DNA of 64,000 nt from Marsupella aquatica (lineage: Eukaryota; Plantae; Marchantiophyta): contig OZ316892.1 of NCBI GenBank assembly GCA_973895155.1, positions 7,733,251-7,797,250 of the forward strand. Direction: 5' to 3'. The translations under genes were made by a program, and so were the position numbers. Below the pieces are notes generated by a model. The model saw only the letters and a list, made by a program, of their open reading frames with translations, searched no databases and had not been told where the DNA came from. Positions 10,230-59,569 of the stretch are shown here, in pieces. Within the stretch, counting starts at the first letter, position 1; each line of letters starts with the position of its first letter.

Positions 10230-10482
10230 AGCTATCTTGTGCACCCTAATTTTTCTCAACTACATCTTTAGCACAAGGTCATCTATTTACACATCGACAT
10301 CTTTTCATGAACAATACATTTTAGTAAATTACATGTAACAACATCTTTTGAGCAACCACATATCTTACTTAATGACATCTTTTGAGCAACCACACATTTT
10401 ACTTAACGACATTTTTTGCACAATGACATCTTTTGCACAACGACATATTTTACTTAACAACATTTTTTGAGCAACTACATAT
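10230..10482 (+). mobile_element. Left part of a Helitron-like non-autonomous element (ACATCTTTT-rich array) interrupted by the Sola1 element; 5-prime end not located
   Basis: Units such as GACATCTTTTGAGCAACCACATATTTTACTTAAC continue directly at 33625 after the insertion. Confidence 0.6.
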
Positions 10483-11350
10483 AACACTAATTTAAACAAT
10501 AGTGTAATGTTTTATTTCCAGAAATTCCCAAATGCATTTATATATTATATTAATATATTATATTAATATTTAATTTAATTTAATATAATTATAAACAACA
10601 ATTTACTTAACTTTCATTTCAGTCTTTTGGTAGCAGTCCCGAAAAGCTTCCAAATATCATTTCTGGGCATAAGATTTAGTCAGATTCGTGCTAATTAAAG
10701 ATATTGAATCCTGGTTGGACCTTGCCCAGGCATGAAATTGTGCAAAAAACGCCCTCAGAAACGTCAAGCAGGCAACCTTATTGGGGAGTTGTCCTCGCCG
10801 GAATGGGTTTGGGAGCAGTTTGGGCTGGGTCTGGGCCACGATCGAGGGAGGGTCGGGAGCCGTTCAAGAGCTCTTCGGGAGTTTGGGAAGGATCCAAGGA
10901 AGTCTGAGGGATAATTAGGGAATATACCTCAATTGGTTGTTTTGTGTTTACGTGCCCGCCAATTAGTGAACTTGTCGCTTAAATGACCAATGCAACCTCT
11001 TTTATCACACTTATGTTTAAATTTTACTTTCTTTGCGCACACATTCAATTTGGTGCAACAAATATAATAACAAATTTACTAACACAGATACTGAAAAGAC
11101 AGAATTGAAACAAACATAGATTTGAGAATAGAATTACAAAAATAGTCAAAATATTATTTTATTTTAATCAAACAGTACATTGTGCATCTAAGAGCGAGCT
11201 AAAATCCACTCCTCTATAAAGTAAGCTACTTTCTACTTGTAACTAAGTATGGGCTCTAAATTTTGTGACATGATCTACGTTTCCCTTCCTTTGAAATACC
11301 GGACAAGATTTCCATTTCTTCTTATTTGTCTCCCAAGCTACATGTAAAGA

Positions 11351-11926
11351 CTATAGGGACCAATCCGGATAATAGTCTTCAATATAATGAAACGAATTCT
11401 CAAACTTGTAAAATCGAGAAAGATAAGGAATAAGTTGAGTTCTCAAAAATCTATCATCTTCATCTCCATGATATGGAGAAGGATATAAAGATGACCAAAA
11501 AGGGTTGCAAAATGTATTATCTGGCAAATCTAAAAGTGTCACGTTTTCTCTAATTATATGTGGCATCTTAAGGTACACAGTTTCAAGTAGTTTCAAATAA
11601 ACAAAGTCTTGGTTCGCATCGAGACCGATTCTCGATAATTTTTCTTTCCCAAAGGAAAACCTGAGGGTACTCCTTTCACTGTCGCTTAGTAATACTGCCA
11701 GGTATTTTGTCAGTATTTTTATTGACATCCGTGACCATATTCCTACACTAAAATTCTCAAAACAAAATTTCACAAACTGGCGGAAAAATGGTCTTGTACA
11801 TATTGTAACATTGTCCACCGCGATGAATCTCGACTTGTTGGTCTTCGATGATACCTCACAAGGATAATAAAGAAATGCATCCATATCAAGTACAAGCAAT
11901 CTTGTACCTTTAAAATATTTCACCAC
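11351..11926 (-). CDS. FCP1/SCP (NIF-type HAD) phosphatase-like domain, probably degenerate; transposon cargo
   Basis: Motifs LLVLDMDAFL (DxDx(T/V) with the Thr lost), RPFFRQFVKFCFENFSVGIWS, YLKLL, TLLDLP and DDRFL...LIPYL. An acceptor TTTGGTACAG precedes VVKYF. Confidence 0.7.
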   Translation of the reverse strand: MVKYFKGTRLLVLDMDAFLYYPCEVSSKTNKSRFIAVDNVTICTRPFFRQFVKFCFENFSVGIWSRMSIKILTKYLAVLLSDSERSTLRFSFGKEKLSRIGLDANQDFVYLKLLETVYLKMPHIIRENVTLLDLPDNTFCNPFWSSLYPSPYHGDEDDRFLRTQLIPYLSRFYKFENSFHYIEDYYPDWSL

Positions 11927-12047
11927 CTGTACCAAATAAAACAAAACATCACTCACATAATTATGTAACAACCCATATTTATGATGTCAATTTCATTAAA
12001 CATTTCACTTGGGAATGTATTATAAAATGAAGTCTGACCATAATAGC

Positions 12048-12735
12048 CTAACTAATATTTTTACGCATTAATTGGAGAACTACTTCACGTCTACTTTCAC
12101 TTCGACTACTCCAATGAAACAAATATGGTTTTCCTAAACTTTCACAATATCCGAACATAATTACAAACATTCCGCAATTATAGGAATCCTCCTGTTTCGG
12201 AATATCTTTTGGAAAGGATCGGCTCCAACCATTAATATCAGAAGAAGCTAATCCTTTATCTTTCGCTTTGTCTAAAATATACTGCCACAAATTGTCTAGG
12301 ACTTTAGAACCTGCATTATGAAAGGAGTCTAAATATTTCAAACTATTTTTCTTGAAGTCAATGACAGCAAGACTCCAATGAGAATTTTGGAGAATTGGTA
12401 CAAAAACTTTCTCACAGTCGAACAAGCTATATCCTAGTCTTGAGGACCATCTTGATATGCACGGACTATAACAATATCCGTTCTTGGTGAGTTCACCATA
12501 AAACCATGTGTTGAAAAAATGACATCTTGAAGATATCTTTTTTTTCTTTAGTAAAATGAAGTATCCATTAATAATATCCGAAGCCAGCCAGTATCGTGGA
12601 CGGAGAGATTTCATAACGTTACAAGTGATGTCGATGTCATCGATAGTGGTCAAAACCTCTCTATCATCCAAGGATAGACTGAGGCAATTGTCTATCAACC
12701 TCTTGCTACTTGCAGATAATGTAAGAGGCATTATC
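12048..12735 (-). CDS. Ulp1/SENP (peptidase C48) SUMO protease domain, spliced to the upstream charged exon (intron about 12736-12822); transposon cargo
   Basis: Motifs SLRPRYWLASDIINGY, FFNTWFY, KVFVPILQNSHWSLAVID, KYLDS and PKQEDSYNCGMF. The His, Asp and Cys triad and the oxyanion Gln are all present. Confidence 0.9.
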
Positions 12736-12822
12736 TGCAAAATCAAAGTTTAATTTAGCAACCTATTCGTTCAAGAAAAGTTGAAACCGCCTAAAGCTTC
12801 ACTAAAATTATAGAAATTGTAC

Positions 12823-15800
12823 CTTTGGAACTCGTGAAGAAGCAGACTCTGTTCTCGAGTTTATGGCTTTCAAATCTGATGCCGACAGTGTCTCTTTTTC
12901 AGTCCCATGAAAACTTGAATCAACGTCCACCATTGCAGAGCAGTCCGGCGGAACAGCGTTCCGCGGCTTAACGAAGTCTTTCTTAAAACAATCCTCAAAA
13001 TCGAGCTTCTGCTTTGAAGATTCCAAATTGGATAACTTTTGTTTCTTCAAGCGTCGTCCCCCAAAAGGGAGTCTTAACTCCCTTAAAGTATCTACGCATT
13101 GCATGTTCGTCGCCATGTCCAAGCTCGTATTGTTAGCTGATAAATGGATGAACTCGTCTGCTTCATTGCTAAGCACATCCGGCGACCACTCTCCATCTTC
13201 TTTTCCACTAATTTCAATCCTGTTCTTCCCTTCACTATTGACCCCGTTTTCCTTCTCCATCTCTTCTCTTTCCCTTTCTTCTGCATCTTTCCTCTCCTCT
13301 TGTTTGTCTTGAGCTCCTCTCCTCTCCTTCTCTTCGGCTTCATTCTTCTCCCGCTCTTCTGCATCTTTCCTCTCCTCCTCTTGTTTGTCTTGAGCTGCTC
13401 TCATTTCCTTCTCTTCGGCTTCATTCTTCTCCCGCTCTTTTGCTTCTTTCCTCTTCTTATCTTCTCTTTCTCTCTCTTGTCTCTCTTCGGCTTCTTTCCT
13501 CTCCCTCTCTTCTCTTTTTCTCTCTTCTACATCTTTCCTCTCCCTCTCTTCCCTTTCCCTCTCTTCTGCTTCTTTCCTCTTCTTCTCTTCCCTTTCTCTC
13601 TCTTTTGCTTCTCTTTCTCTCTCTTCTCTCTCTTGGGCTTCTTTCCTCTCCCTCTCTTCATGTTCTCTCTCTTTTCTCTCTTTTCTCTCTTCGGCTTCTT
13701 TCCTCTCCCTCTCTTCTTTTTCTCTCTCTTCGGCTTTTTTCCTCTCACTCTCTTCATGTTCTCGCTCTTCTCTCTCTTTTCTCTCTTCGACTTCTTTCCT
13801 CTCCCTCTCTTCTTTTTCTCTCTCTTCGGCTTTTTTCCTCTCACTCTCTTCATGTTCTCGCTCTTCTCTCTCTTTTCTCTCTTCGGCTTCTTTCCTCTCC
13901 CTCTCTTCTTTTTCTCTCTCTTCGGCTTTTTTCCTCTCACTCTCTACATGTTCTCGCTCTTCTCTCTCTTTTCTCTCTTCGGCTTCTTTCCTCTCCCTCT
14001 CTTCATGTTCTCTCTCTTCTCTCTCTTGGGCTTCTTTCCTCTCCCTCTCTTCATGTTCTCTCTCTTTCCTCTCTTCTCTCTCTCTCTCTCTCAAAGAGTA
14101 TGATAAGCCACTAATGATTCCCATGGCTAAGGATCATGATCTCATCATATGTGGGTAGGTCCCATGACATGCACTACGGACATATACCCCCCGTCACCTG
14201 ATACAGGGACAAAGTTAAAACTAAAATCCAGAATAACCAGGAGATAATCATCCGGCCACCAGAGCCATTGATTTATTCCCAAAACATCTGGGCCACACAA
14301 AACAACCAGATACCAAAGCCCATGACCTAAAAAGCAAGCCAAGATAGCGGCGCTACCAAGTCCAGCTATCCAGCCACAGAGCTTACATTTCTCTGAAAAC
14401 ACTCGATAGGTGAAGAAGCACACACCCTGTGGGGAGCATAGGCTGACATGCATGGCAGAGTAAGAGCCAGGACACACTGCACTAGCAAGAAGATCGTGGG
14501 ACCAGCAGCGAAGGCCAAGGATCAGGGACTGCTGAGGCAACACAGTGACACACAGCCTCTCGTGGCTCAATGGGAACCCCACCAAATCAGGTGCTAAGCT
14601 CACATTTTTTTACAGCAGATGTTGCTCCTTCTTTTCTATTCCGTTCACGACATATTGGTATGCATAAATGTGATGTTGGAGTTAATAATAAAAAGGAATG
14701 TCATAACAAGGCTTGGGAGACTCGACTTTTTCCGGCCCATGTCTCCCCGCAGCCGTCTAGACATCGCTGCAGAAACATGGGACTAGAAATTGTGCCTATT
14801 AAAGCACAATCTCGATCCAATGGCGGGGGCTGAACGAAGACATTGGAATTGTGAATGGAAACAGTCCGTCCATTCCCGGTAAAAGAATATGGTCCATGCT
14901 CAATGCTGTGGACACAGCGTTTGAGTACAACTGTCACCAAGCAGAGCTCAACATCGAAAGATACTCAGCTTTATAGACCTAGTTGTTTTGAAAATGGACA
15001 GTTTATAAATAAGAGTCGTTATACAAAATCAGCATGTCTGACTTCCATGGTTAATAGACGTTTGCAGTACCGAAAACTAGATGTGTGAATTATGTGTGAA
15101 TGTATGATCGATACTCTGCATATGATTGAATGTTGAATCAAGGAATGGCCAATAGAGAACAATAGGACCTGCTTTAATGTAGGATGTAATATATCTATGG
15201 ATATCTAAATATAATATCTCTCTTCGGCTTCTTTCCTCTCCCTCTCTTCTTTTTCTCTCTCTTCTCTCTCTTTTCTCTCTTCGGCTTCTTTCCTCTCCCT
15301 CTTTTTTTTTCTCTCTCTTCTCTCTCTTTTCCCTTGTCTTCCTTTCCCTTGTCTTCCTTTCCCTTGTCCTCCTTCCCCTCGTCTTCCTCCTTCTCGTGCT
15401 CTTCCTCCTCTTGTTTCCCTTCATCTTGATCTTCGTCATCTTTTTTTTCCTTCCGTTCTTCCTCTTCCTTCTCATCATCTTCGTCGTCTTCATCCCCCTC
15501 GTGCTCCTCGTCATCTTTCTTTTGCTTTCGTTCACCATCTTCCCTCTCCTTCTCCTCTCGATCCTTTCTCTCTTCTTCCTCCTCCTTATCTTTCTCCTCC
15601 CTTTCCTTCCTCTCCCTTTCCTCTCTCTCCTTTTTCTCTTCTTGCTCCACTTTCTCCCACCGTTCCTTTTTCTGTCGTTCCTTCCTCTCCAACTCTTCAC
15701 TTTCCTTTTTAAATTTTTTTGACACGTATACTTTTTTTCTTCTTTTTTCCCTGAAGTTTCGCCATCATCAACATTCTTTTTTGATTCTGAGGCAGACTTC

Positions 15801-16260
15801 AAGTCAAATTTGAGTTTTTTTGCTGCAAGCTCAAGCTCTTTCTCTAACTCTACCTTCTTTTTCCTCAACACTTTGGCTTCTCTTTCCCGACTTTCAGAAT
15901 CCTCTGAATCTCCTACTGACTTTCCGCTCTCCCCACCTGGTGACCAACCCTCATTCCCAAAATCTGCATTCACTGATTCGCTCTCGAAATCCCCATCAGA
16001 ATGTAAATTGCTTCCTTCACAATCACATCTGGATTTGGAACGTTGTTCTCCCCTTTGCGAGAGAGTCATTCTCGTCGTCATCGTCGTTCTCGTCATCATC
16101 ACCATCATCATCGTCACGTGCCTCTTCCTCGCGTTTGGATTTCTCATTCTCCTTATCTTGGTCTTTCTCATCACCTGACTCCAATTCCTCATTGTGGTAA
16201 CCGAGTCTCTTCAATGGACTAGGTAATCTCTTGCTTGAATGCGTCTAAGGGTCAACACCT
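12823..16260 (-). pseudogene. Acidic and E/K/R-rich coiled-coil linker exon(s) of the cargo gene, with frameshifts and a 1.1-kb insertion
   Basis: ORFs 16023-16214, 15077-16192, 15195-15725 and 12808-14124 form one low-complexity reading path with ERKEAEER repeats. It ends at donor AAG|GTACAA, in phase with the Ulp1 exon. Confidence 0.7.
14093..15216. other. 1.1-kb foreign insertion inside the (CT)n-rich coding repeat
   Basis: Composition changes abruptly, and the E/K repeat resumes on both sides (TCTCTC|AAAGAG ... ATAATA|TCTCTC). Confidence 0.6.
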
Positions 16261-16336
16261 AATATCACCCAATTCCATTTGTAGGTAAGTTCAAAATCAT
16301 TTTAATTAACAAAACCAGCAAGTCCTACTAAGCGAG

Positions 16337-16710
16337 CGGAACACCGTTCCGTCCGCAAATCTGAATAAGCTCGCGGAACACCGTTCCGTCCGCATATCCG
16401 ACTAAACGCACGAAACACCATTCCGTTCGCAAATCTGACTAATCGCGCCGAACACCGTTCTGTCCAAAAATCCAACTTAGCAAATCCTACTCAGCACGTG
16501 CAAAACCTTTCCGTTCAAAAATCTGGGTAAGCGCGCGGAACACCGTTCCATCCGCAAATTTAGTGTAGCCTTGCGGAACAGCGTTCCGTGGGCAAATCCG
16601 ACTAAGCGCGTGGCAAACCCATACCGTCAACAAAGACTTCGGAAGAACCCCGCGGAACACTGTTCTGTCCGCAAATTTAGTGTAGCCCCACAGAACATAG
16701 TGCCGTCGGC
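16337..16710. repeat. Intronic tandem array of about 9-10 units of about 37-40 bp, each built on the palindrome CGGAACACCGTTCCG
   Basis: Unit is approximately CGGAACACCGTTCCGTCCGCAAATCYGACTAAGCGCG, with copies at 16337, 16374, 16411, 16448, 16536, 16574, 16653 and 16691. It lies 3-prime of donor GCG|GTACGT at about 16776. Confidence 0.85.
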
Positions 16711-16776
16711 AAATATCTAACTCCAATGGCATGATCACATATACACAAAATCAACTTTAACTTTAAAAACACGTAC

Positions 16777-19700
16777 CGCCAAGAGGTCCTGATGGAAGGA
16801 TCTGAGGAAGGGAGTAGAGAAGGCAATCATCATCGTTATCAGGCCGCTCTTGTAACCCATACTCCTTGATGACATGCTCTATTTGATGATCCGTGAGTTG
16901 ATAGCTCTCATTGAGGATGTCAAGGATATCGTCCCTCACTTCAAAAATTGACTTCTTCTTCAAAATCTTTCTCCGGAGGAGGTTTTCAAATGTCTCACGC
17001 TTCGGACATTTTGGCTCTTCGAACGATGGATACAATGCGTTGAAGTAGTCAGACAAGAGGTCGTGGCTCTCGACAGGGCAAAAACTTGTCACAAATATAG
17101 AATTCCCCTATGTGAGAGAATCAATTGTGTTCATTAGTCATCAAATTGAGTTTAAACTTGCGAGAAACATGTAAATTTAAATAAATTCAGAAATCACACT
17201 TACCATTAAACATTCGATGAGACGACGATTGTCACCAAAACAAACAACGGAATCACCAGAGGATAGAAATAGTTTCACAAGATATGAAAAATATGTGGCA
17301 GTTTTCTTGTCGCTGAGACTCTCCGCGACGTCGACTTTGTCATAATTTGCAAGCTTCCCCCTCAAGGAGTCTCTCAAAGATGACTCCTTTTCTTCAGGAA
17401 GCGTCGAAGCCACAAATGCTTCATCAAACAAGGAATACAAGACATATTGTGTTCTTCGGCCTTCTGCTTCTAGCAAGATGTCATTTTTGTCTTTTTCGGA
17501 GCTCCGAAAAGTGATTTGGGCGGGGAGACATATGTATTTCTTTGTTGGAGTGATGCCTTGCATGACGTTGATAATCTCCAAAGGGTTGACTATCAGCACA
17601 ACTTTATGTCGCACAGCTCCAATAGTAGAAGTTGCTTGGAAAAACTGATGATAGAAATGATGGTCGTATGGACCATACTCAGATGTCCTCGTCGAATCAA
17701 AATAGAAAAGGTCCACTGGTGTATTCTCATAGGTTTGGGACAAACCATCAAAAAAGTTCTTTCCTCCAAACCCTTCAATCGATTGCAAATGAAACAAAAC
17801 ATTTTTTTCACCACAAGCAAATTTCTGTTTCGGTCGACAGATCTTGAAATTGAGTCGACCAAACCTTTGAAAGAAGCCGGAATAAGATAGATCAGTTCTG
17901 CCCAATTCATGTTGTTGAGCCTTCCAGATTGATATAGGCCAGGAGGTAGCAACTCCCTTAGCATATGCATCCGCTGCCCATCAATATGGAAAAAGCTGCA
18001 AACATCAGCAACCTTCTCCTTCCTCTCATCTTTGCTCAAAATGCAGAATTCGTTGATTTTGCTTCTCTCAGTGAACTCCAACAAAAATATGCATTCAAAA
18101 ATATGCTTATTCATTTTCTCGAGGCAAAACTCCTCAAGTGACCTCCACCCTTCCATTTGAACAGGGTCATAATTCTTGTCATTTGTCCTATTTGGGAAGA
18201 GCAACACCTTCTCTCTCGAAATCAAATACTTTGCCAGCTTTTTCAGATCTCGATCTTCAAGACCTTGCATATGCCGGAAAAACCTTCTCCGGAGATGCCA
18301 CATTGTTCTATCCTGATATGGCTTTGCTATGTGTTGGAGAACTTTATTTGAGTGGATGAGCAGACCATCTTCTGAGAGACATTGTCAAACTTCCATCTAG
18401 AGCTCAAATGTGTCGTCCTTCATCTCAAACAAAAACGGTGCCATCTCGATGAATCTCATGTTTCCATTGACCATCACAGCTGTTGGGTACGCAATATGGG
18501 CCGCTGCACAAAATGGCTGCAAATGTAGAAAGTTAGAAAGATAATAATAATGAAGATCTCAGGATCCCACGGAACATTGTTCCGCGGCTCGAGCTCTTTC
18601 AATTATTTATCAAATGACCCAAGTCAAAGAAAAATTAACATACCTTCCACATTGAATTTGCTTTTTGTCCGCTCAATGATGGTGGTCTCCCGGCCGACAC
18701 CCATATTTTCCTGACTTGCTTTGCCATCAGAAGAAACTGACTTTCTGGCATTGTTGCCTTGTTCATGTTGTTCAAAGCTTGTGAGAGGCCCATAATCTTC
18801 GTATTCCCAACGAGATTGAACGGTGTCCAGAAGAGAGAGGCTGTCACCATGAGGAGTTCCTCTTTTTTTTTTGAATCAAATTTTGGATCGGAAATCAGCA
18901 ATTTGTAAGCCTCAATCGTATGATGTCCTCCAATTATCCAGAAGTAGCAGTTCTTCACATCTTCAAGTGTTGGTCAAGACTTGAAGGGAGCTCCATTGTA
19001 GAATGGATCTTTCTCAGCTTTGCTTGCATCCCACTGGACTGGAACGAGGTAGACTCGAGTCTTCTCAAGTGCAAGGGAAGAATGACCCATCATTGAGCCC
19101 TTCAGAACTTCACAGTATTTCCGATCAAAGACTCGGCATTTGTAGTCATCGGGTCCTAATTTACATCGAAGTGTTGCCAGCTCAAAGGATTTTCCTTCAA
19201 ACAAAGTCACTGATTTATATTCATTCAGAAGATTACTAAACATTTCCTTTGCGTTCTTGTCGTTAACTTCCTCTGGCAGATTTCTCGGACGGATCTCCCC
19301 TTTTCTCCCTACGATGAAGTCTCGAACAAAATCTTCCTTACTCCACTCAAAAATACTCGTGAAGTAGAAGGTAAGAGTATCTCGCGGAAACTACTTCTGG
19401 TGTTATTGGAAAACGGATGTCTTCATTGAGTAGTCGGTGGGAAGTGAAATCTCTGTACTTCTTTGTCTTTTCCAACTCCACGTCAATCCCTGCTTGGTCA
19501 AACTTGTTGTACTCTGGGAGCCTCAAGCAAACAACAATTTTGGGTTGCTCCTCAATATCTTCCAGCAAAAGGCAGAGACACTCTTGATACTTGGCAAGAC
19601 CAAGGTTTCGTTTGAAGAATGAACCGACTATCTTGTGGTCGGCTATTATGGAGAGTGACTCCGTCTCGACACAAAGAAAAAGGCATCCCCCATACCAAAC

Positions 19701-19869
19701 CACCCCCCATCTCTGACATTTCTCCATCTTCAAGGGATGGACTGATTTTGACTCGTCACAAAAAACCTTTGGAATCAACGTCACGACGAGTCACCTTCCA
19801 AACTTTATTCCTTCGGGGTGTTTTGGACTGAGCCTTTCTTTTTGACGATGAAGTCATTGTGGAATCCAT
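16777..19869 (-). pseudogene. Multi-exon cargo gene: ParB-like N-terminal domain followed by a degenerate beta-class N6/N4 DNA-methyltransferase-like region; stops and frameshifts
   Basis: ATG at 19869. The ORFs chain through homopolymer frameshifts, an in-frame TGA at 18974 and GT-AG introns (about 18518-18643 and about 17109-17203). Motifs YFWIIGGHHTIEAYK, VDLFYFDS and YLVKLFLSSGDSVVCFGD. Domain calls are by eye. Confidence 0.55.
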
Positions 19870-20014
19870 TTGCACAAAAAAACGATTAGGAGAGTCATGC
19901 TTGTCAACTGGCGGAACACTGTTCCGTCTTCTAAGGAGTTAATAGAACAATATCCCAAAATGTCATCCGCGCATTTTATTGAAAAAATTTGGAATACATC
20001 AAGTCCTTGAGTAC

Positions 20015-20557
20015 TCATTTTGGTAGGACCTGGAATCTCTTCTGGACTACTTCCCTCTCCTCAACATCTAAACTTTCCCACAACAACCAGAATAAGCAAC
20101 TGTCCAACGGAAGAAGTGATCCAAGTATCTCAATATTTGGAAACTCGTAGAGGTTGTCTCTAAAGATGTGTAGCAGATGGCGCGATATTAAAAGGTTGGC
20201 TTCTGGAATGGTAGAAAGTTCATCGTTGATCTTCTCTATTTTCTCGTTTGCTTCTATCAGAGCAAACCAAAATTTTGTATGTTTTACTAAAAATTGCCAC
20301 TTCTTGTTGCATGACGCAAGTCTGATCATGGCAGTCGTCCTCGAGACAAATGATTCTTGATCAAGTCCTCCGCATTGAAGACTGTGATCCATCAAAAGAG
20401 GCCAAATTTTGTCAATCACCAAACTGTCTGGCAGACCTTGCATGTACAGAGAATCGGGATTGAGCCTTTGTCTTTCAAATTTTGCCACTTTCTCAAGATC
20501 TTTGAGTAAATCGCAAACCTTCTCAACCTGCACGGCTCTGCTAGAGACTTCGTCCAT
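20015..20557 (-). CDS. F-box-like protein, transposon cargo
   Basis: GLPDSLVIDKIWPLL ... MIRLASCNKKWQFLV fits the F-box pattern LP-x-I-x-L ... l-rl--v-k-W--l. Confidence 0.55.
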   Translation of the reverse strand: MDEVSSRAVQVEKVCDLLKDLEKVAKFERQRLNPDSLYMQGLPDSLVIDKIWPLLMDHSLQCGGLDQESFVSRTTAMIRLASCNKKWQFLVKHTKFWFALIEANEKIEKINDELSTIPEANLLISRHLLHIFRDNLYEFPNIEILGSLLPLDSCLFWLLWESLDVEEREVVQKRFQVLPK

Positions 20558-20587
20558 CCTGTCGGATTGATCAAACGGAACTTATTA

Positions 20588-21144
20588 TTAGCAAATTCTA
20601 TCTAGATTTGAAGCCATTCTCAAGATATCCGGTTTTGTAACAGAGTAGAGTAAAATCCCATTTTTTGATGGGATACAGGAGGTCATATGCCTTCGTGAAT
20701 GTTTCTTGAAGGTTCTTGGGCATCGATCCCAAAAATTTAATTTCTGGATACTTTCGATAGAAGCTATAGGTAGTTTGTTCGAGAAGAGGAGCAGGAATGA
20801 AATCAATGGGAAACTTGACTTCTGTGGGGTTGAAAGTCTAAAATAGTCATCTTGAGGACACCCATGATATACGTATTATTTATCAAGTGGCGCCATCTGC
20901 GAGAGATAGACCTCATCAAAATCAATGAATTCAATTCTGAATCCGAGAATGAACTTTGGTCTACCAAGGTATTAAAATATCCTAGACATATATTCCAGAT
21001 TAACTGCTCCACGAGTTCGTTGGGAAGCCTTGGAAGTAGACTTTTTCCCAAGAGATCGTATTCTTGCGTAAGAGAACACTGGAGTGCGATATATCTGTCA
21101 AATGTTGGGCGAAACTTATTGAAACACTTAACGCCTTTTTTCAT
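20588..21144 (-). CDS. Second F-box-like protein (ORF 20803-21144, probably continuing by frameshift into 20588-20806)
   Basis: LLPRLPNELVEQLIWNI ... LILMRSISRRWRHLI. Confidence 0.55.
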
Positions 21145-21230
21145 CGTGTCTGCAATCGCATGAGATTTGTATGAAAGTCAGAGTTTTTTCGCCTTGTCTA
21201 ACAAACTAATATCTTACATTCTATGTCCGA

Positions 21231-21975: not shown

Positions 21976-22099
21976 GAATAAGTGGATCCCATCAAGAAGG
22001 AGAAGACTGATGAAGAGGATCTGAGATTCTACGAAAGATAATCTAAACCCAAAATTATATTCGTACAAGAAAGCACGGGATTCGTTTAATGCATCAAAT

Positions 22100-25000
22100 C
22101 AATGACTGGTTCCTAAAAGAGAGATTGGATTGTCACCTGAATCCGCAAACGATATAGTGTGAGATCTTTGTGAGTGATTGATGAAAGAGAGGCCTGCACC
22201 TGAATGAGGAAACCTAGCATTACTTAAAACATCCATTAACATCCACTGAGACTGAATTGTCATAAGAACTATCACTAGCAGACTGAAGCAGCTGGAAACT
22301 ACAAGCCCTAAAACAAGAAGCCATGAAAAGACCTCTTCAAGTGTTCAAACATGTACAGTAGAACATACACAAAGTGGACAATTGAAGTTACAGGATAAAT
22401 CTGACATTACCAATCTCAGGAGAAGGAGCTGTCAAGCAGGAGGAGTTGATCACCTGAAGCTGTTGATGCCCTAAACCAGTCGATGAGCTGAATCAGTTGA
22501 TGATCTGAGGAGCTGAAGTAGTTGGACAATCAAGAAGAGAATGAGTAGCTCAACTAACCAGAGAACTGAGGAGCAGCAGGAGAGCAACAGCAGCACAGTT
22601 CGAGCAGAAGTACGAGCAATAGTAGCAAAGCGAGAGTAGACCTAAAGCACAAATGGAATGAGTGAGCAATGAGCGTGAGCGAGTGCCCGGATGAGCGAAT
22701 GAATGATCAAGCAAGTGAGGTATCAAGGGAGGAATGAGCGGGGAGGAGGAGCGAGTGATTGAGCGCAAACAAATCAAGCGAGTGATCGAGCGAGAGAGAG
22801 AGCGCAAGCAAGAGAGCGAGAGAGTGAGCGCAAGCGAGAGAGCGAGAGAGCAAGAGGGAGAGCGCGAGTGAGAGAGCGAGAGAGCGAGAGGGAGAGCGTG
22901 AGCGAGGGAGTGAGAAGTGAGAAGTGTTCTCGAGAGGGAATCCGGAAGTAACGGGTTTAGGGTTAGTGAGAAGCGCAATTAAGTGGTGCCTCTAAGTGAG
23001 TCCTTGAGGCATGTGTTAGGGCACCCCTAAACTAGATTAGGAAATACATCATGGAGGAGGGATTTGGACCCCTCATATAGGCCCTCCAATCTCCAAATAA
23101 GTTGGTGCAAATAGCATGGATCCAAAATGGTACATACTCCTTATAAAAGGACCCTTGAGAATGGTTACAAAGTAATTGAACTAAAACTAAGTATTACTGT
23201 ATGTTAGTAAGTGGATACCCTATAACATCCATAAATATCATTCAGACATTGTGTATATAATGAGGCCCATGCATGGCCATTGACATGTTCAGCATTAGTC
23301 CATGATTATTTTGCAGTTGTGGGCAAGGCTCCATCCTCACTTTAGCCTAACGGTTATTCTTACAAACGACAACATCTATGGAGTGTCTATTGATACCAAA
23401 TTTTTTGCAAGAAACCAATCTTGTTTTGTAATAGTAGTCACACTATTTGGTATTAATGGAATTGGTTACATTTTTGGACAATAGCATGGACAAAACATAC
23501 ATTAAATTGAGAGTCAGAGCCCAGGCAACTAATTTACACTAATTTACAACACTCAGGCCCTCCAACTGCTTTGCCTATTTAAACAACTCATAGGTGGTGT
23601 CAACCACATAAATCAGTTATCATTAATAAAACATTTTAGTTAGAGAGAGAGAAACTCTTACAAACAACTTTGAATCAGATTGAGTGGATTAAATAATTGT
23701 CACTCTCCAATAACTGTTAGTAGAATATGTAACTCTCCCCACAAATCGTAGAACTACAAACTTATACACTAATATTAGAGTCCAATAAATATAATTTCAT
23801 GCAACTTCAAACCATTCAAGTGCCACATCCTCCATAGCCCTAAACCACTCTTAAAAATGTCATGCTGTAGATATTTATTCGTGCCAAAGTGGTCACAAAA
23901 GCACGATCAAAAATGGCAATTGTTGGGCTTACCTAGCATTTTCATAGTTGAAGAAACACAAATGAATTCACTACTCAGAACCTAGTAAGTTAGTGGAAGT
24001 CAGCCGTAGAGTAACATATCTGTGAGTCCATAGAGTCAACAAATACAAGCTTGTCTGATATTGGGAGCACAAAGGAAGCACCGAGAGACCAGCAATAAAG
24101 ACCATAAAAATGAATGAATTACCAAAATTATCATAAATAATGGAGACGACCAACAACGCTTCCTCCATTGAAAGTGGGAAATTGTTGAGTATTGACAAAC
24201 GACCACAAAACCACTCGAGCCCCCAGCATACACGTTGAAAAAAAAGGGCCGAGTTGAGATGGACAATAGAACAGCCAGTCTCAGAAGATGTGAGAAATGG
24301 CCCTGGTCACTCCAAGAGTGGACCGAACAAGAAAGAGTGGTCATGCCAAGATTTTGAGTATTCTCCGGAACCCAACTAAACAGGACCACAGGAGCACTGA
24401 ATGGACATACTTAAATAGATAATTTCCCATCTTAGCAAGGGCTATTGAGTATAACAAAACTCATATCACACCATCACAAGGAATCTGCTTAATATGATCT
24501 TTAAGTTTTTTCAATCTTTATTACCTACTTGTGTGACATGGCTCCAACCCAGGTTAATGTCACATATGTAGAAGATGTTTACTTACTCCATGATCTCAAA
24601 CATGGCAATTGGGTACAATATTCAAAACTCATCCTTGCACTATCTGTCTTTTGTTGTGATCAAATGGTGATAAACAGTGGAAACCTAGCATAAGACATGT
24701 TGACCAACTCAATAATTTCCATACTGCACACAATGAACACAAATCAAGCAGCTCCAAAATAATCTTTAGAAGATAGATTGCATTCAGAAATTCACAAGCA
24801 TACTTAATAGAGCAAGTTCATGCCATTCATTATGCCCTCTTGAGGAGCCTAAGTAAGTGGAAACCAACAAATAGCATTCAAGAAAATCAGGAAGGTTATA
24901 AACCCACCACACATCAAAATGTGAGATGTGAACCACCATGTAGAGAGAACCAGTGGCCATGGCCCTTAGGTGTGGCATGGGTCTAATTCCTAGGGAATGG

Positions 25001-26200
25001 GTTCCACCATTTTGCAGATTTTCCCTTTTCGGGGTGAAGAGCAACCCTATAGTTGGCATAGATGCAAGGGTTCTGGAGGGTGCCCTCCTTGAGACTAGTG
25101 GCATGCCCCTTGGTCCGACTCCATCAAGAATGAAGGAGTTGGTCAAGCTTATGGTGATAGGTAAGCTTAGAACTCTTGAATTTCTCTACAAGTTGGTGTA
25201 CTCTTTCATGTGACTTTGGATGACTTTTATTAGAATATTAGAGACTACGCTCTTGGCACCGCAATTGAGTTGATAGCCCGCGCGACACCATAATAGGCGC
25301 CGCACCGCATTTGAGTTGATTGCGTACGTGGAAGAGTAGATAGAGTACTAGGTTAGATTTCACTAAATCATGTTGCATGCATCCATATATCGAGGGATGC
25401 AGTATTGTAGGCCATGCAATCTTATAGTATGCCATGTGTCATGTCAGTTGTTTACTTGAGTTGGCTCTACTGTATAAAGCCTTGAGCCCATTTCTCAGTA
25501 ATTCAAGCGTTCTTTACTTTACTGTAAATACTCCAACACTCTCCACACATGAGCTCACTCTCTCCCTCAAGCCACTTTGTTGCAATGAGCATGCATTATC
25601 ACACAAGTGGCTTACACTAGCCCTGGTATATGCCTCACACACAACTTACTTACTAACCTATTTACCTCACCTAAGTCCCTAACAGTGGTAAGTTAGCCTA
25701 ATTGCCGTAACCTATGAGTGACAAGACTAAGAGCAGAACAAACACCCCCCATGTACCCCTTCTTAGTATTTCTGCTTACAAAAAGATACCTTGTTAATGT
25801 AAATTAAAGTATTAACTTTTCCTATTAAATTTGATCCAAGAATAATATAACTTCACACAATGAGCCAACTCTAACAAACATTGTTTGAGCACTTGGTGTA
25901 AGAAAAGGGCAATGCGGAAAATGAGAGCAATCACTCAATCTCACACTACACCAACATGACACCATGATCATACTTGGAGAAACTCCGTAAGGATCCATTT
26001 GATACCCGATTTGATAGCTCATGAATGATTGAGATTGAACATGTGAAGAATGAGGGAGAGAATGCTCTCCCTCTAACCTATACCCTCCAAGGGGGACTAA
26101 GATGTGTGGGCCTAAATAAGTGGATGTTATCCTAAACTAACCAAGGGTCAATTAACCCTAGTAAGGCCAGACTAACTATAGTCGGGAACTCGAGTCAATT
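22100..26200. mobile_element. Probable nested, highly decayed retroelement remnants (GA-rich tract 22600-22940; LTR-like segment about 25236-25684)
   Basis: TATTAG...CCTAACA contains a TATA-like TATAAAG and is followed by a degenerate PBS-like GTGGTAAGTTAGCC. The region has no convincing gag/pol ORF and no Sola palindromes. Confidence 0.3.
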
Positions 26201-26416
26201 CCTAAGAAGATGTCATTGAGACAAACAGACGTTGTGTCGCCCAAGATGCCGTTAAGAAAATATAGAATGTGGTGTCACATAAGATGTTCTTAAGAAAAAA
26301 ACTGTCGCACAAAAAGGGCGCAGAAAATGAGTAACAACCACAAACTATCACCAGTTCAGGCAGGCGGAGGAGGGATTCACTCGGGACCGTCTTTGAGAGC
26401 AGGAGAGGAAGCAATG

Positions 26417-26839
26417 ATGTCAAAGCGAGGGCGCGGAGGTTCCTCCGGGAACAAGTTCCGTATGTCACTTGCTCTGCCCGTCAGTGCTGTGGTGAATTGT
26501 GCCGATAATACTGGTGCAAAGAACCTTTATATTATCTCAGTGAAAGGAGTACAAGGACGCCTGAACAGGCTGCATGCAGCTGCAGCACGTGATCTGGTGA
26601 TGGCCACAGTCAAGAAGGGGAAACCTGATCTAAGAAAGAAGGTCATGCCTGCTGTCATCGTTAGGCAAAGGAAGCCGTGGCACCGCAAAGACGACGTGTT
26701 TATGTACTTTGAAGATAATGCGAGAGTCATCGTGAATCCAAAGGGAGAGATGAAAGGATCTGCGATCACGGGACCAATTGCGAAGGAGTGTGCATATTTG
26801 TGGCCTAGAATTGCAAGTGCCGCGAATGCCATTTTGTAA
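26417..26839 (+). pseudogene. RPL23: Intronless full-length (140 aa) 60S ribosomal protein L23/uL14 retrocopy with substitutions at conserved sites
   Basis: [18 protein letters not shown]...[13 protein letters not shown]...[11 protein letters not shown]...[11 protein letters not shown]. The frame is open, but RLH/ARD, WHRKDD, EDNAR and CAYLW replace the usual RLP/GD, WRRKDG, EDNAG and CADLW. Confidence 0.9.
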
Positions 26840-26917
26840 ACTTCTTCTTTTTAGTTTTACACAGTTTGAGCACAATCATGCAAATACAATAAACTCTAGA
26901 TAAGTGACACTCTCACT

Positions 26918-27132
26918 ATCCGATTACACTAATTTTTCCATTCCTTGATAAGTGCACATCCCCTAAAATTTTCACTTACTAATAAATGGCATCTCCACAG
27001 GTGAGCAGCCGTGTGACTCATTACACAAAATGTGAATACTTGCCATAAATTTGATGTCCATAAGTCCAAATTTTCCTTTACTAAAAAAAAGGGTGTGCAC
27101 TTATCAGTAAATTAATGCAATCTCATTGGATT
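26918..27132. mobile_element. Small MITE-like inverted repeat
   Basis: TGATAAGTGCACATCCC (about 26946) is inverted to GGGTGTGCACTTATCA (about 27091). Similar GATAAGTGC/CACTTATCA words occur at 46400-46690. Confidence 0.4.
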
Positions 27133-29212
27133 ATGTGCTTCCCGATAACTGTACCATCTTTCTTAGTTTGAGTAAGGCACTTATAAATTGTTTTGCATTT
27201 AATAAAGTTCTCATGTAGCTAAATGACTTGATATTTATTTGGCCTTAGATAAGGTGGAAAAAATGCAAAACTTCTTGTAAAATGAGAAGAAAGACAAAAC
27301 CAAATTGGCTCTTGGACAGAACCAGTTGTACATTGGGGCAAGGGTAAATTTTGTATAGAGAAGATTGAGAGATTGGGATTGACAAATACATTAGGTTCAA
27401 ATAGATTAGGTCGGGGTATGTACTTGCAAGTACAATGGGAGGATAGAGGGGTGAATCCATTGGCCTACAATAAGGAAGGTATATAGCCAGGGAAGAATAC
27501 TTGTACTTGTTTTGCAGAATTACCTTTTTGCAGGGTTTGGTTCATTTGTTTCTCCTATACTAAGTTTCTTTAGAATTTTTCTGAGTGACACACAAACTGC
27601 AAATTCAAATAACGACCACTTCAAAAAAGGGCGCATTCAACTCTTTATTATAGTTCTTGATTTTCCCGCATGTCCGGCCTTCATTTGTTGACATCTTTCA
27701 GATTGGTATCAATGTATTATTCAGATTAGGAAATCATGATGATGGTTATATGTGTAATTAAATCATGATGAATGATGATTAGTTAAATAATATACATTAA
27801 ATATTAATTATTTTTAAAAATTAATAAATCCAGAAGTATAATTTTTAAGTATTTGATAAACATACTCATTTGTCCCTCAACCATTAACCCCTAATAACCC
27901 ACAATAGTTGGCTCAACTAGGTTCAACTATGTGATGGGGGTCCAAAGATAATAGTTTTGTGAAACATACATAATTAGTTACTGCAAGACTAGAACTTCTA
28001 TACTGTCTCCGTTGTTCTAAAGAGACCAAAACACAGTAACCAATGTATTATAACTAAGTATGATGTATAATTATACTATTTAATGATGACCGGACCGAAC
28101 ATTTAATGATTTATCTTTTTTGTTTTACTTCATTCTTTCTTTCTTTTTCCAATTTGTGAAGCCTAAGTAATGTGACCAAACCCCTTTGTCACAGGCCTGC
28201 TTAATGTTTGTTATGCGATATTGGAAACATTTCTGACTAACAGTGAAAATTATGGTTACTTTGGTCCGAACATTACCGGGATCAATACCTGAACATTTAC
28301 GGTCCAATGTGTACATGAAATCAGACAGTCTGCTCACATCTACAAGACATCACGTTTGAGTGTTCAACCGTAATTGCATGGCACTATAAGTATAAGAGGG
28401 AGACCATCACAGGTAAAAATGGTCCCCAACAAGGTCCCTACCAAGGTCTTCATAGGGTAAAATATGAATTTCGAATTTCGAATTTCATATAATTAGGTCC
28501 GCTCACATGTGCATGAAGTACAAGTGTTCACTTTCAAATTTCAAACATCAGATTCGTCCCCGCACATGTGCATCAAGTACTGTCAAGTATATACTTTCAA
28601 ATTTCAAATTTCAAACTTCCCCCCAAAACCGTGAAGGTGAGCAAGACGGGATGAGTATTCTGTTTGTCGTCCCATCTTTTCATTTCATTTGGCAATTGTG
28701 AATCATGGAGCGAGGCTGAGAACAAGTTCAACATCTGCGTTTCTCGGAGGTTTGGAGCTTGGTTGAGCTCGGGAGAGTTTTGATGTGAATGAACAATCCC
28801 AGAGACTCGACGATTCATTGAAAGGGGCATCAGAGATTCATCGTTCGCGATCCACAATCTCAGACTCAGGAGTCGGAGACTACTCGACATTGTCATTGAA
28901 TAAGGTACTCGGGAGGGTTCTTTTGAAATTTCTATCATTTAAGAGTAGATCGTCCACTTCTTAGACTAGAAAGTATGTTCATTTCAGTTAAAATCCCAGC
29001 TTCATGTCCCAACTTATGCCTTCATTAGAATTTATTCTGAATAATCTCATTGGATTCTTGAGATATTGGAGTTCTTGTGACTGGATCCTACTTTCACTCT
29101 GTTCAAAAATATAATCTAGGTCTCGTGGGGATCTGAGAGATTCCTCTGATGAAATCTCTTAACAGAGTCTTGTCGCAGAGAAGAATGTTAAAAACTGAGA
29201 GGGAGAGGGCGA

Positions 29213-29878
29213 CAGAACACCGTCCCGTGGGGTTCATGAGTTGTGGTTTCAAGGAATGGATGTTAGCCGAGCAGTGATAGTGACATTAAACTTCTTAGGA
29301 TGACTCTTCTTGGAGATACCACTGGTTGATGTTGATTGACCGACGGAACAGTGTTCCGCCGGCACAGTTCAATATTGGTTTGATTGATGTTTTTGAGTTT
29401 TATTTATGATGATGTGTTTTTTGAGATCCCTACAATATATTTTGAGTGGCCCACGGAACAGTGTTCCACCTCCACCGTTAAAAATTTGTGCGATGAAAGT
29501 TCCAGTTTTAATGATGAGTATGTCTTTTATTTGAGATACCTCCCATTGATTTTGACCGACTGACGGAACAGTGTTCCGCCAGCAGAGTTCAAGATTATTG
29601 ACACATGAAGTGAATTTGGAAGGAAGGGCGGAGATCGGGTTTTGCAAAATCCTTTGTTATCTGGTTTGGTTTGAGGGTATTTTGATGGAGAGACCGCGGG
29701 AGAGACGTGACATTTTAAAGTTGTCCTGCTGAAAATTATTGATGTGCATTTCAAAACAATCGGCAGAACACTGTTCCGTGCGGTGTTGGAGGATATTTAA
29801 AATGAGAGAGGGGTATTCATTTAATCTTGAGGGACTTTTGAGTCGTGATGGATAATTACCTACATGACAGTGTTCCAT
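29213..29878. promoter_or_regulatory. Cluster of 5-6 CGGAAC-nnn-GTTCCG palindromes upstream of the transposase
   Basis: Copies at about 29213, 29345, 29454, 29564 and 29765, with a half copy at about 29868. Several are spaced about 110 bp apart. Confidence 0.6.
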
Positions 29879-29969
29879 TGTATTTGTCAATTAATTTATG
29901 AGAGATACATTATTCTTATCAATAACCATGTTTTGGATTTAATTGTAATTGGTTCATCTGTTCTGACAG

Positions 29970-32900
29970 AAACATAGTAAACTTGAAGAGCTGGATTCGA
30001 GTTGGGAAAGAGGTTGGGTTATGTGTTGGAGCCTCTTTGGTTGGGAAAGGGACGATCATAAATCTTGATCCGACGGTCAAGGTAGATGATTGCTCACTTG
30101 GTTCGGATAGAGTGTTGGTAAGGATTGACAAAGTTCTGAGAAATGGCGATGGAGAGAATCCTATATTTGACTCAAACTCCACAAGACCTTGGAGAAGGAC
30201 CGATCTTTTGCCGCTTGCCTCTGGAGATTTTGGAAATTCTGAGATAGGAGGGTACGAACATGGAAATGAAGGTCACGATGGAATTGGAGAGGGGAGGGAG
30301 CACCAAAAGGAGATCATAATACGCAGGTGTGATTGGAGAGAGATGACGGTAAAAGTCATTGATGACAATAATGTCAACTTCTCAATTGCGATGGTGAGTA
30401 CAACTAATCCGGATGTGGTGTTGCAAGGCACATTGCTTGGAGAGACACATGTTGGTATACTCATCATGGAATTCGTTGATGGTGCTCGAAGAGAGCATTT
30501 GAAACATAAAGATTGCCTTGTACCATGGCCAATTACAAGGTTAATTGCACCGGGAAAAAGTTTACATTACCATTTTCAGAATCAGAGGCTAGAACGACAG
30601 GACGTCTCAAGCGGGAAGAGGTCATATGTTAGTAAAGTGAGACCTCAAAAGAAACCACGGAAGGATCTGACTAGGAAAGAATGAGCCCTATCACCCGAGG
30701 ACATCCTATTGATCAGTACGAATAATTGTTGTCGGCGTAAATGTTGTCAATACTTTGACCGTGACTTGGCTCTAAAAATTAGGGAGAAGTACTTCAGTAA
30801 GTCATTTCAAGAAAGGAAAGAGGAAGAAGTGTTGGCGATTCAGAATGCGCTAGACACATCCGACGGAGAGAGGTTGTTAGGCGTTGAAGGAGTTCCAATT
30901 TGTCTTGAGGCCTGGAAGGTATTGCATGCCAAGAAGAAGACCCAATTTGATATTATGAAGAAGCAAGTTCGGGAAGGATTGAAGATATCACAACATGGCA
31001 ACCAAGGGAAAAAAAGGATGTCAAAGAGAGTCTCGCAATCATTGATGTCAATGAAAATGATTATTGATGAGAGTGCAGATAATCATCCTGCAAAACAAAG
31101 AACTTTGGCTGACAACTCTCAGGTAGGTCTTCGGGAGTTGCCGACAAGCGTTACTTGGGAGACTATCAGGGATCGGGTGAATGGCATAAACATCGCCCTT
31201 GGCCTCCGCCCAACATCCCAACCAACAATGAGTTTCCTTCACCAGAAATATTTTTAAGAAGTTCTGATTCACAAGAAGGGAAACAACTTTTCGAAATGCA
31301 ACACTTGTAGTGAGTTGCAGCAACGGAGGTCTCGCCTTTCTGGAGGAAAGGAAGAGTTGGAGATTTTCAGACGAGATGAGGAGGAGCATCATGAAGATCA
31401 CATGCAGGGGAGACTCTTATATCATGCTTGGAGGTCGCATTCTGTTGCACATCCCAAAGAGTCAGTCTGTATCATCCATGACAAAATGGACCATTGTAAG
31501 ACTGCTCTTCCAAAAATGCCATGGAATCCAAAAGATTGCGATGGCTCTGTTCGACTGCCCATCACTGTAACCGGCATTTTAACTCATGGTCATGGGCCTA
31601 AGTGTGGCTCAGTACAATCTTGCTTGTTGGGCTCCGGATTCAAATGCAAGCATTGGGTCTATAGACTCAATTCTTCGTATGTTGGAAAATCCTGAACCTA
31701 TGATCAATTCACTTCTGGAAGGGCCGGATTCCACAAACGTTTTCAACAATCTTCTATGGGGGAGAAAAGATGTTCTTGAGGAAGATGTTAGGAAAGCATT
31801 TAATGACGACACCAGATTCATTGCGGAGCAAGGTATGAAAGTCTTCTACATATTGACAATGCTCAATCCTATGATTTTGTAGCATTATGTCCCTTTTTGT
31901 GAATCCATGTACAACAAGGCTACTTTGTGTCCATAATTTTCTAAAACATTGGGATTTGTAACAATGCAGCCGAGTCATCATCTTCACCCCCGAGTGATTG
32001 TTTCAGGCCTCTCCCACGGACATTGAAATTACAACTTGACAATGCACCAAGTGACAACAAGAACAGATTTGTTATGGCATATTTATCATTGTTAACAGCA
32101 AGGAAGGTATTTGAGGAGGTTCAACTTGGATTCCTTATGGTTGGGCACACTCATGAGGATGTTGATGGGATGTTTGGGCATTTCTCAGAATCTCTTATGC
32201 ACAATCCAACATGGACATTGCCTGATTTGATGAGCTTGTTCATGAAAGCAAGAACGCCAAGTCCGGTTCCACATTTTGTTCAAGAAGTACCCGATTTCAA
32301 AGGGTATGTAGAACCTTTTCTACTAAGAGGCCCAGACTCATTGGTGGGGCATGGAAAGCCCCGACTATTTCGATTCTATGTTCGAGAGGATGGGATGCCA
32401 TGCTTTCAGTATAAGCTCAAGTCAAATGATGTTGTGCCATGGGTGCCAAAGGAAGGGATTGAAATGTGGAGGTGGGGAAATGATGGATGTCCAAACCTTC
32501 CACATGGGATGCCAAAAAGACTTCCCATGACAGAAATAAGCATGTTGGCTGATGTTCGTGTAGGGATACAAAAACATTTAAAGTTCTTCCAATTGATTGT
32601 GGATAGAAGCAAGACAGAGGAATCAAGAGAATCTTGGGACGATCTCATCCAATACTGGAAGGTTGTCTTAGCTACATTGGAAACGGAGGTTGTACAATAT
32701 AGGCAAGAAGATGGAGACAACTTGAAAGGCGGATTTTGGCCTCGGTCAAATTGGAAGGACAATGTGCCTGTCACTTTTCGGAATGTTGCATGTGAGTTGG
32801 ATGCAAGAGAGTACTATGTTGGACCTGTGAAAAATAGGCCACGAGAAGCCTTTCAACCAAGAGTAGATATTGTCAAAGGTCATTTTATTTTGCAAAGACC

Positions 32901-33270
32901 AGCAACGGAGGATATAGAGAACTATCCTGTTCATTTGGGAAGAGTTGTAACCGATGTGGAAGAAGGAGGGCTGAATGATGAGAACAAGCTTGAGCATGTG
33001 TGTTCAGTGGAGTGGTTCCGGCCTCATATGGGCAAGAGTGAAGTGGGACAGAAAGAAAGGTGGAAAAATTGTTGGACTAAAATATGGGAGCGGGATGAAC
33101 GAGAATATCCCACGCCTCTCAAAATAGCTGTGAATAGTGTTTTGTGGTGCTTCAAGTCTCAAAACACTAAATCTGGTTTGGTTTCAATTCCAAAATCTGT
33201 TTTGGTAAAAGCACAAGACAATCTTGAGAGATGTAAAGAAGCAGATGATGGAGTGCTTCACCAAGAATGA
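29970..33270 (+). pseudogene. Sola1-type DDD transposase, disrupted (TGA at 30682, frameshifts at about 31255 and 31600, intron about 31833-31968)
   Basis: CCRRKCCQYF and FSKCNTC Cys motifs. Catalytic-type motifs CIIHDKMD, LQLDNAPSDNKN and FLMVGHTHEDVDGMFG. Confidence 0.85.
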
Positions 33271-33624
33271 CAAGTGAACCAATGTGGGGACAAATGAAAG
33301 TTCCTCTCATGAATAGGGGTTAGGGTGACTGCCTGGGTTTAGGGTTTAGGGAATAGATAAAGACAAAATGTTTTCAAATATTACTTGTACCTCTAAGTGC
33401 CATTTAGAACATAAATTTTTGTACAAATGGATACCCAACAATTTTACATTGTGAATTATTCATTTGGGGAATCTCGTGTTGTGTTCACAATTTATTGTTT
33501 GATTGATGTTTTATGATGTTCTAATCTTAATTATCATTTAATTTAATAATTTAATTTAATATATTCAAGTATTTAGCAAAAAACGGAATTTAACAAATAT
33601 ACCGGTATTGTCTAAATTGGTGTT

Positions 33625-59265: not shown

Positions 59266-59569
59266 GGTTACAACTGCAATCATCACAAAGCACATCACAT
59301 ATGAGGGGGACATGTATGATAGTCGGCAATCCATAGACAAAGATAAGGTTAATCATAGCACCTGCTCCAACGATCTGCAAACCTTCCTCCCAGATGAAGT
59401 CAACTACACAGTGCAACCTGAACACAGACCAACCAAGACATACATAAATACAATGCCAGCTTGCGAAACTTGCCACATAATGGGAATGAAAAATATTCTC
59501 ATATATCATGGATGGTACAATTGCAGCCTTGCAAACAAAGGCCTAGTCATATATGAACAACGCATCCAT

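Follow-up and report, generated by a model that had tools for sequence, protein, structure and literature searches.

A 64,000-nucleotide stretch of contig OZ316892.1 from the liverwort Marsupella aquatica (GCA_973895155.1, positions 7,733,251 to 7,797,250, forward strand), referred to here as the window, was analysed computationally to follow up an earlier note made from the sequence alone. Between positions 10483 and 33624 it contains a cut-and-paste DNA transposon with terminal inverted repeats (TIRs); that this is a real element, with its ends and target-site duplication, is held with high confidence. The copy in the window is dead, broken by stops and frameshifts. On balance it is probably best described as a decayed large Sola-type transposon with a standing cargo of ParB-like and FCP1-like genes, in which a short palindrome, CGGAACACYGTTCCG, is the putative docking site for an anti-silencing protein encoded by the element, the ParB-like product being the leading candidate.

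The left TIR (10483–10501, plus strand, starting with the AACAC terminus common to related elements) and the right TIR (33606–33624, minus strand) agreed at 17/19 positions in reverse-complement comparison and were both flanked on the outside by ATAT (10479–10482 and 33625–33628), which bears out the 19-bp TIRs and the ATAT duplication over 23.1 kb described in the earlier note; the span between the ends is 23,142 bp. The surrounding host sequence is a high-copy repeat with 17-bp subrepeats (9617–10482, resuming at 33625 and running to about 33960), whose 17-bp period is present on both flanks and reads through the junction after removal of one ATAT. The proposed empty site could be reconstructed in this way, with a rejoined unit 1 base shorter than the usual 17-bp unit; another such short unit is found in the right flank. 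TIRs with a target-site duplication were not unique in the window: when its whole length was scanned for 19-nt inverted repeats that tolerate up to 2 mismatches and are bordered by the same 4 bp on each side, 7 pairs emerged, 4 of them from one long inverted repeat elsewhere and 1 representing an internal palindrome. The ends were considered fixed because the element splits the host repeat and carries the terminus of its family. Another of the pairs, an outer one at 9838/37546 with TATG flanks, has its left side in the high-copy repeat and looks like chance. In public sequence data, the left flank (8500–10530) was recovered as a high-copy repeat in contigs from four runs, some of which extended at 10474 into further 17-bp units; coverage of the element itself came to only 48 bases, and none of the rows listed spanned the junction. 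Four of the five listed sequencing runs contained 0.57–0.63 of the words of positions 10000–19999 (2 studies, 2 organism labels); no RNA run was listed among them, which has no bearing on expression. The very high-copy repeat itself starts sharply at 9617 with a short hairpin and was found in 20–34 contigs per run with dissimilar 5' flanks.

The transposase gene (29926–33270, plus strand) matched the Pfam family PF25273 (DUF7869) at E 3.4e-36, and its acidic motifs HDKMD, QLDN and GHTHEDVD are those of open relatives, in agreement with the DDD transposase that had been assigned to the plus strand. Its frame is broken by 2 in-frame stops and shifted at least once, near 31600, with additional stops before 31945, and the copy in the window is therefore unable to move itself. 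A homolog search returned 18 transposase relatives of 782–1250 aa. Named homologs come from Ceratodon, Chara, Calypogeia and Diphasiastrum; together with the PRP31 and diterpene synthase genes described below, they suggest a non-seed land plant as source. DUF7869 with a GHxxxxD third motif was taken by us to indicate a Sola transposase. In a tree of 87 rows, composed of unnamed relatives only, the window protein fell into no strongly supported subclade. No transposase relative was recovered from viral contigs, whether by single-protein or by alignment scanning, or from metagenome contigs by the single-protein approach. Eight contigs from prokaryote bins carry one, and two of these (L081 and L082), nested among plant-type sequences in the tree, probably represent plant DNA contaminating bacterial bins.

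Metagenome contigs were scanned by alignment for related transposases; of 474 loci containing one, the best 80 were collected. Ends were analysed in 74 loci (88 minus 14 near-duplicates), giving 30 TIR matches with a second palindrome, TRGTGGCCACYA, just inside. The loci resemble plant DNA, with long terminal repeat (LTR) retrotransposons, YEATS and ZIP genes. Related elements end at the same AACAC terminus, beyond which conservation drops sharply (33 related ends). One site, represented by L029, L033 and L032, is occupied by an element of 11,273 bp that starts with AACAC, has an ATAT duplication and has TIRs matching at 24/25 positions. The 4-bp duplication is exact in the window and in L029, agrees at 3/4 positions in L023 and L032, and is mismatched in L021 and L044; in these last two, the same TIR-like site (L021 5125 and L044 765) has the same outer flank in different copies, and because the flank is common to both, the site is probably an internal or nested end and not the outer one. 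Sites of GTGTT followed by AWWT (16/40 loci) were rejected as right ends, many being internal and lying ahead of the true end. The ATAT of the window element is consistent with the AWWT of Sola1, and AWWT occurred as the outer 4-mer at 6/30 related ends against a background of 5.3%, most of the others being AT-rich. Of the Sola1 call in the earlier note, the Sola-type transposase and the 4-bp AT-rich duplication were retained, but with AWWT at only 6/30 related ends the Sola1 subgroup is not established. In one locus (L040, 4442–4834), a YEATS chromatin-reader domain (PF03366, E 1.3e-28) was observed 5 kb upstream of the related transposase.

Related elements also share cargo with the window. 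In L029, the right end is occupied by the transposase, on the plus strand, while the minus strand carries NIF domains; L023 (10.9 kb) has the same plan, with two NIF pieces on the minus strand. In L058, an AACAC end is followed by a transposase with its tail toward that end and then by a divergent ParB-like match (E 3.1e-7) and two NIF domains. Altogether, 4 non-redundant loci among the 80 (L023, L029/L033, L058 and L070) had NIF close to a related transposase. Since this cargo recurs opposite the transposase in relatives, and the ParB-like gene in the same order in one of them, both were assigned to the family and are very probably native. Several observations count against this assignment: a clear ParB-like match was obtained in 1/80 loci (L058), the layout of that locus requires an assumed inversion of the front part of the transposase and its far end was not found, and the NIF domain of L070 is on the transposase strand. 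On the transposase tree, loci with NIF cargo showed no clustering (5 changes versus a shuffled mean of 4.5), a scatter that would fit an old cargo often lost.

The NIF/FCP1-like phosphatase-domain exon of the window (11351–11926, minus strand) is open and matched PF03031 at E 2.1e-10 (40.9 bits, Pfam cut-off 21.8); it was also found at E 5.4e-13 by a profile built from related loci, and a PDB sequence search gave no match at E 0.01. The catalytic motif of FCP1/SCP (NIF) phosphatases is DxDx(T/V). In the window the first motif reads DMDAF, which is incomplete, and several related copies lack both aspartates. Of the FCP1-like phosphatase in the earlier note, the domain was confirmed above cut-off, but the catalytic motif was not, and from the sequence, catalysis is doubtful.

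The ParB-like gene (16776–19790, minus strand) probably comprises three exons and contains stops and two frameshifts; these, like the transposase stops and the palindrome and nested zone described below, were absent from the earlier note. The ParB piece had no match in a word-based search, whereas with HMMER 26 homologs were retrieved from 1.84 billion representatives, the best of them being 70% identical over 245 aa. Many of them end at the same exon end, a Calypogeia protein covers exons 1 and 2, and the family has open relatives, including the Calypogeia and Diphasiastrum proteins. In the relative with the 70%-identical ParB domain, the upstream part is 43% identical.

The fold was predicted on this 70%-identical relative (P0021) at a mean predicted local distance difference test (pLDDT) value of 56.6, with residues 191–330 mostly at 74–93 per 10-residue block. 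In a Foldseek search with the model, the first 19 rows were of ParB/Noc/KorB/PadC/sulfiredoxin type (best E 1.8e-3). With VIA-align, the first 8 rows (Z 8.9 to 5.4) all belonged to the ParB/sulfiredoxin fold, among which we count Atu1540, SbnI and SerK, and the next, unrelated row was at Z 4.7; PadC ranked first (Z 8.9, root-mean-square deviation 2.9, 99 aligned), followed by a second row at Z 8.3. The prediction supports a ParB/sulfiredoxin fold for the product of 16776–19790. It is weakened by three points, namely that no Foldseek row reached E 0.001, that the model is of the relative P0021 and not of the window protein, and that the conserved motif of the family, GG(Q/H)H(T/S), is without the arginine of ParB CTPases, whose CTP-binding motif is GxxR and which bind palindromes through a helix-turn-helix. 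Searches of Pfam, PHROGs, PADLOC and PDB sequences gave no significant ParB, DUF3723 or methyltransferase match (two weak ParB rows in PHROGs, with E 0.07 and E 0.17).

The earlier note had described this gene as ParB-like and methyltransferase-like. The first half of that description agrees with the Foldseek and VIA-align results; the methyltransferase half could not be confirmed. DNA amino-methyltransferases are characterized by a class I Rossmann fold and by DPPY-like and FxGxG motifs. In the C-terminal alpha/beta region of the gene, such motifs are degenerate look-alikes seen by eye only, with no profile match; the model there is poor (pLDDT 51.9) and gave no clear structural match, and the C-terminal piece had no usable match in the Atlas. 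In the ESM Atlas, the ParB-like domain of a homolog scored 0.95 in language-model features to fungal clusters, scores of this kind being uncalibrated for protein parts, and in two of these clusters 31% and 78% of the members carry DUF3723. PF12520 (DUF3723) gave no HMMER match at E up to 10 against 32 members of the ParB-like family. Homology of this family to the Starship gene DUF3723 is accordingly treated as a lead only.

The Ulp1/SENP SUMO-protease domain exon (12048–12734, minus strand) is open. It matched PF02902 at E 9.7e-26, and in an alignment with SENP2 (E 2.5e-30) the His, Asp, Gln and Cys were in place, i.e. the His-Asp-Cys triad and the oxyanion Gln of the Ulp1/SENP (C48) proteases, so that the intact catalytic residues claimed for this gene were verified. 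A Glu/Lys/Arg-rich repetitive coding region (12821–16210, minus strand), which is frameshifted and carries an interruption of approximately 1.1 kb at 14093–15214, probably belongs to the Ulp1 gene as its 5' part, judging from splice-like sites. Two open reading frames (ORFs) on the minus strand (20015–20581 and 20803–21177) have weak F-box-like similarity (PF00646, E 0.068 and 0.021); at 13.6 and 15.2 bits they remained under the Pfam cut-off of 20.5, and the two F-box-like genes with a ubiquitin function proposed in the earlier note were not confirmed. Neither Ulp1 nor the F-box-like ORFs had a match in any of the 80 related loci (0/80 each, many loci being short or decayed), and 285 open frames from 39 long related loci included neither. 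A linkage of cargo to such a transposase elsewhere, which had been suggested as a check, was thus found for NIF and the ParB-like gene but, in these loci, not for Ulp1 and F-box, and a family-wide Ulp1 cargo is not supported.

The palindrome CGGAACACYGTTCCG was found in 27 copies in the element versus 1 in the other 41 kb (15-mer, at most 3 mismatches), and 21/22 matches to its 13-mer core lie inside the element (shuffled mean 0.96). Spacers or an intron contain 26/27 copies, one being in coding sequence. There are three arrays: array 1 (16317–16714, 37-bp period) in the spacer that separates the Glu/Lys-rich region from the ParB-like gene, array 2 (21231–21978, 88–94-bp period) upstream of the cargo genes, and array 3 (29213–29783, approximately 110-bp period) upstream of the transposase. 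Array 1 thereby precedes the Glu/Lys-Ulp1 region, array 2 the cargo block and array 3 the transposase; single copies are located in intron 1 of the ParB-like gene (18570) and just upstream of that gene. In related elements the palindrome is a different one, TRGTGGCCACYA, with 0 copies in the window; in L029, 30 copies are inside the element and 0 outside. Its copies are found close to the ends as well as in an array in the interior. Window and relatives thus each show motif arrays specific to their family in non-coding parts, as is seen with VANC.

The middle of the element differs from the remainder. The 13-mer had 0 matches in 22000–29300, and the zone at roughly 21980–29200 has a CpG observed/expected ratio (o/e) of 0.45 and no element genes; no LTR pair was found in it, and the single Pfam match was an open, intronless copy of ribosomal protein L23 (uL14; 26414–26839, plus strand, PF00238, E 1.2e-36), which by its sequence is probably a retrocopy. 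Because this zone lacks the palindrome, has lower CpG and contains the intronless RPL23 copy, its approximately 7 kb were read as one or more nested insertions that probably arrived later, which would put the native element at approximately 16 kb. Of the claim that one TIR-bounded multi-gene element is present, the element was retained, but 23 kb was not kept as its native size.

Demonstrable passengers such as the RPL23 copy and the 1.1-kb interruption raise the question of whether the cargo as a whole consists of captured or nested gene fragments that are carried passively and have no function for the element. The 0/80 result for Ulp1 and the F-box-like ORFs and the degenerate NIF motif also speak for this explanation, which we nevertheless regard as improbable: L058 repeats the order ParB-then-NIF opposite the transposase, and L023 and L029 repeat NIF, beside transposases that share only about 35–45% identity with that of the window; the ParB domain is more conserved than the part upstream of it in the relative described above; and CGGAACACYGTTCCG is interleaved with every cargo gene and absent from the middle zone.

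A role of the palindrome in countering silencing was considered instead, as palindromes precede genes, sit in an intron and change between lineages in a manner resembling VANC. The intact ancestor of approximately 16 kb would have moved by excision and reinsertion at AT-rich 4-bp targets, with the middle 7 kb added later and the Ulp1 protease gene as cargo in the window lineage. By analogy, a ParB-like dimer may bind the palindromes ahead of each transcription unit and in the intron, spread along the element like a clamp and, together with the SUMO protease and the phosphatase-like domain, counter silencing for its own family only, as VANC does for VANDAL. This mechanism is put forward tentatively, and we would not yet bet on it. 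Three observations argue against it. TRGTGGCCACYA is also subterminal in relatives (L029, 771–1132 and 11520–11747), which fits transposase binding. It is kept in elements with no detected ParB-like gene, most such loci being short or decayed. The CpG o/e of the arrays, with the motif masked, is only slightly raised (0.63 from 36 CpGs, compared with 0.51 in the transposase and 0.39–0.48 in the flanks).

The main rival takes the palindromes as transposase-binding or end-pairing sites and the ParB-fold protein as a transposition helper, a clamp that would bridge or compact a long element. It is favoured by the presence of 2–4 copies of TRGTGGCCACYA within 600 bp of the terminus at 30 related ends, by the occurrence of TRGTGGCCACYA in at least 3 copies in most transposase-bearing loci (34/44 non-redundant loci of at least 6 kb), and by the Atlas lead to DUF3723, a standing cargo of the very long Starships. 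In the window, however, CGGAACACYGTTCCG is absent within 2.4 kb of the left end and 3.8 kb of the right end and is found ahead of genes and in an intron, and we consider the helper role rather unlikely. Less likely still, at about the level of a passive cargo, is a general toolkit acting genome-wide on host silencing through SUMO removal, ubiquitin ligation, C-terminal domain (CTD) dephosphorylation and DNA methylation. The intact catalytic residues of Ulp1 and the NIF score above the Pfam cut-off would suit it, as would the capture of Ulp1 in Mutator-like elements (PMC13317346); the F-box scores under the cut-off and the NIF first motif lacking Thr/Val do not, and lineage-specific motif arrays suggest a self-targeted and not a global action.

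The element retained in the preferred reading, a large Sola-type transposon with an anti-silencing docking site, was compared with known systems. Sola1 is recorded for Physcomitrella (PMC9033089), and AWWT is given as its hallmark (PMC3845634); described insect elements measure 2.3–2.8 kb (PMC3845634) and bivalve ones an average of 5.4 kb (PMC10294476). The window element has the DDD-type DUF7869 transposase, the short TIRs and the 4-bp AT-rich duplication of Sola; it differs from the described Sola1 elements in its size (approximately 16 kb native, 23 kb now), its extra genes and its motif arrays. The VANC pattern consists of family-specific motifs in non-coding arrays and introns (PMC5735166), and some VANDALs carry Ulp1 (Ulp1/Kaonashi in Arabidopsis, PMC13317346). 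Shared with VANDAL/VANC are the multi-gene DNA transposon, the family-specific short tandem motifs in introns and intergenic parts and the Ulp1 cargo; different are the transposase superfamily, the TIRs, the 4-bp duplication, the 15-bp palindrome, the FCP1-like domain and the candidate reader, which here would be a ParB fold.

Bacterial ParB/parS, Noc and KorB clamps share the ParB/sulfiredoxin fold, predicted here, beside repeated palindromes, whereas the window holds a plant gene with introns, no ParA and a replaced GxxR arginine. VirB of Shigella is said to be a ParB-related anti-silencer in bacteria. Starships are likewise large and cargo-bearing, and the Atlas lead connects their DUF3723 with the ParB-like domain; they are fungal, however, with a DUF3435 tyrosine recombinase at the 5' end, and the Pfam scan of the window found DUF7869 and no recombinase. 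DUF3723 (PF12520) is described as a conserved Starship gene of unknown function in two preprints (bioRxiv 10.1101/2021.12.13.472469 and 10.1101/2025.02.28.640899). A full-text literature search, whose coverage excludes most subscription papers, the original Sola paper and Repbase, retrieved no giant Sola with ParB, NIF or Ulp1 cargo, and DUF3723 and ParB were never found together in it; in its accessible sections, a review of giant eukaryotic transposons mentions no Sola, Ulp1, ParB or F-box (PMC6431247).

Other features were recorded outside the element. The host PRP31 splicing-factor gene is located at 1171–2511 (PF01798, PF09785). Inverted arms of approximately 300 bp (36699–36996 and 49487–49785), 85–91% complementary and 12.5–12.8 kb apart, enclose a multi-exon, intron-rich diterpene synthase gene of CPS/KS type (39068–44500) and a 74-bp tandem array (38407–38965); the arms are either two copies of a small element or the ends of a gene-carrying one. 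A second candidate cargo element is located on the minus strand at 53500–59700, with long broken ORFs that have no Pfam match and contain a motif series which we take to be that of a P/THAP9-like transposase; an ORF beside it encodes NSD-type PHD fingers (PF23004, E 1.1e-7; PF23011, E 2.4e-5). The CpG o/e of this candidate element is 0.29.

Sola elements have been described as short single-gene transposons; here, a lineage with a conserved multi-gene load is found, in which the palindrome is swapped between subfamilies. In its widest and rather unlikely form, the reading would be of a giant Sola-type family in non-seed plants that uses a DUF3723-related ParB clamp on parS-like palindromes to recruit a SUMO protease and a phosphatase-like domain against silencing, the ParB module being shared by unrelated giant transposons of plants and fungi. 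If a ParB-fold protein does read the palindrome, sequence-specific anti-silencing would have been reached by another route, unrelated to that of VANC, eukaryotes would be using a DNA-clamp fold known from bacteria, and DUF3723 would gain a testable function.

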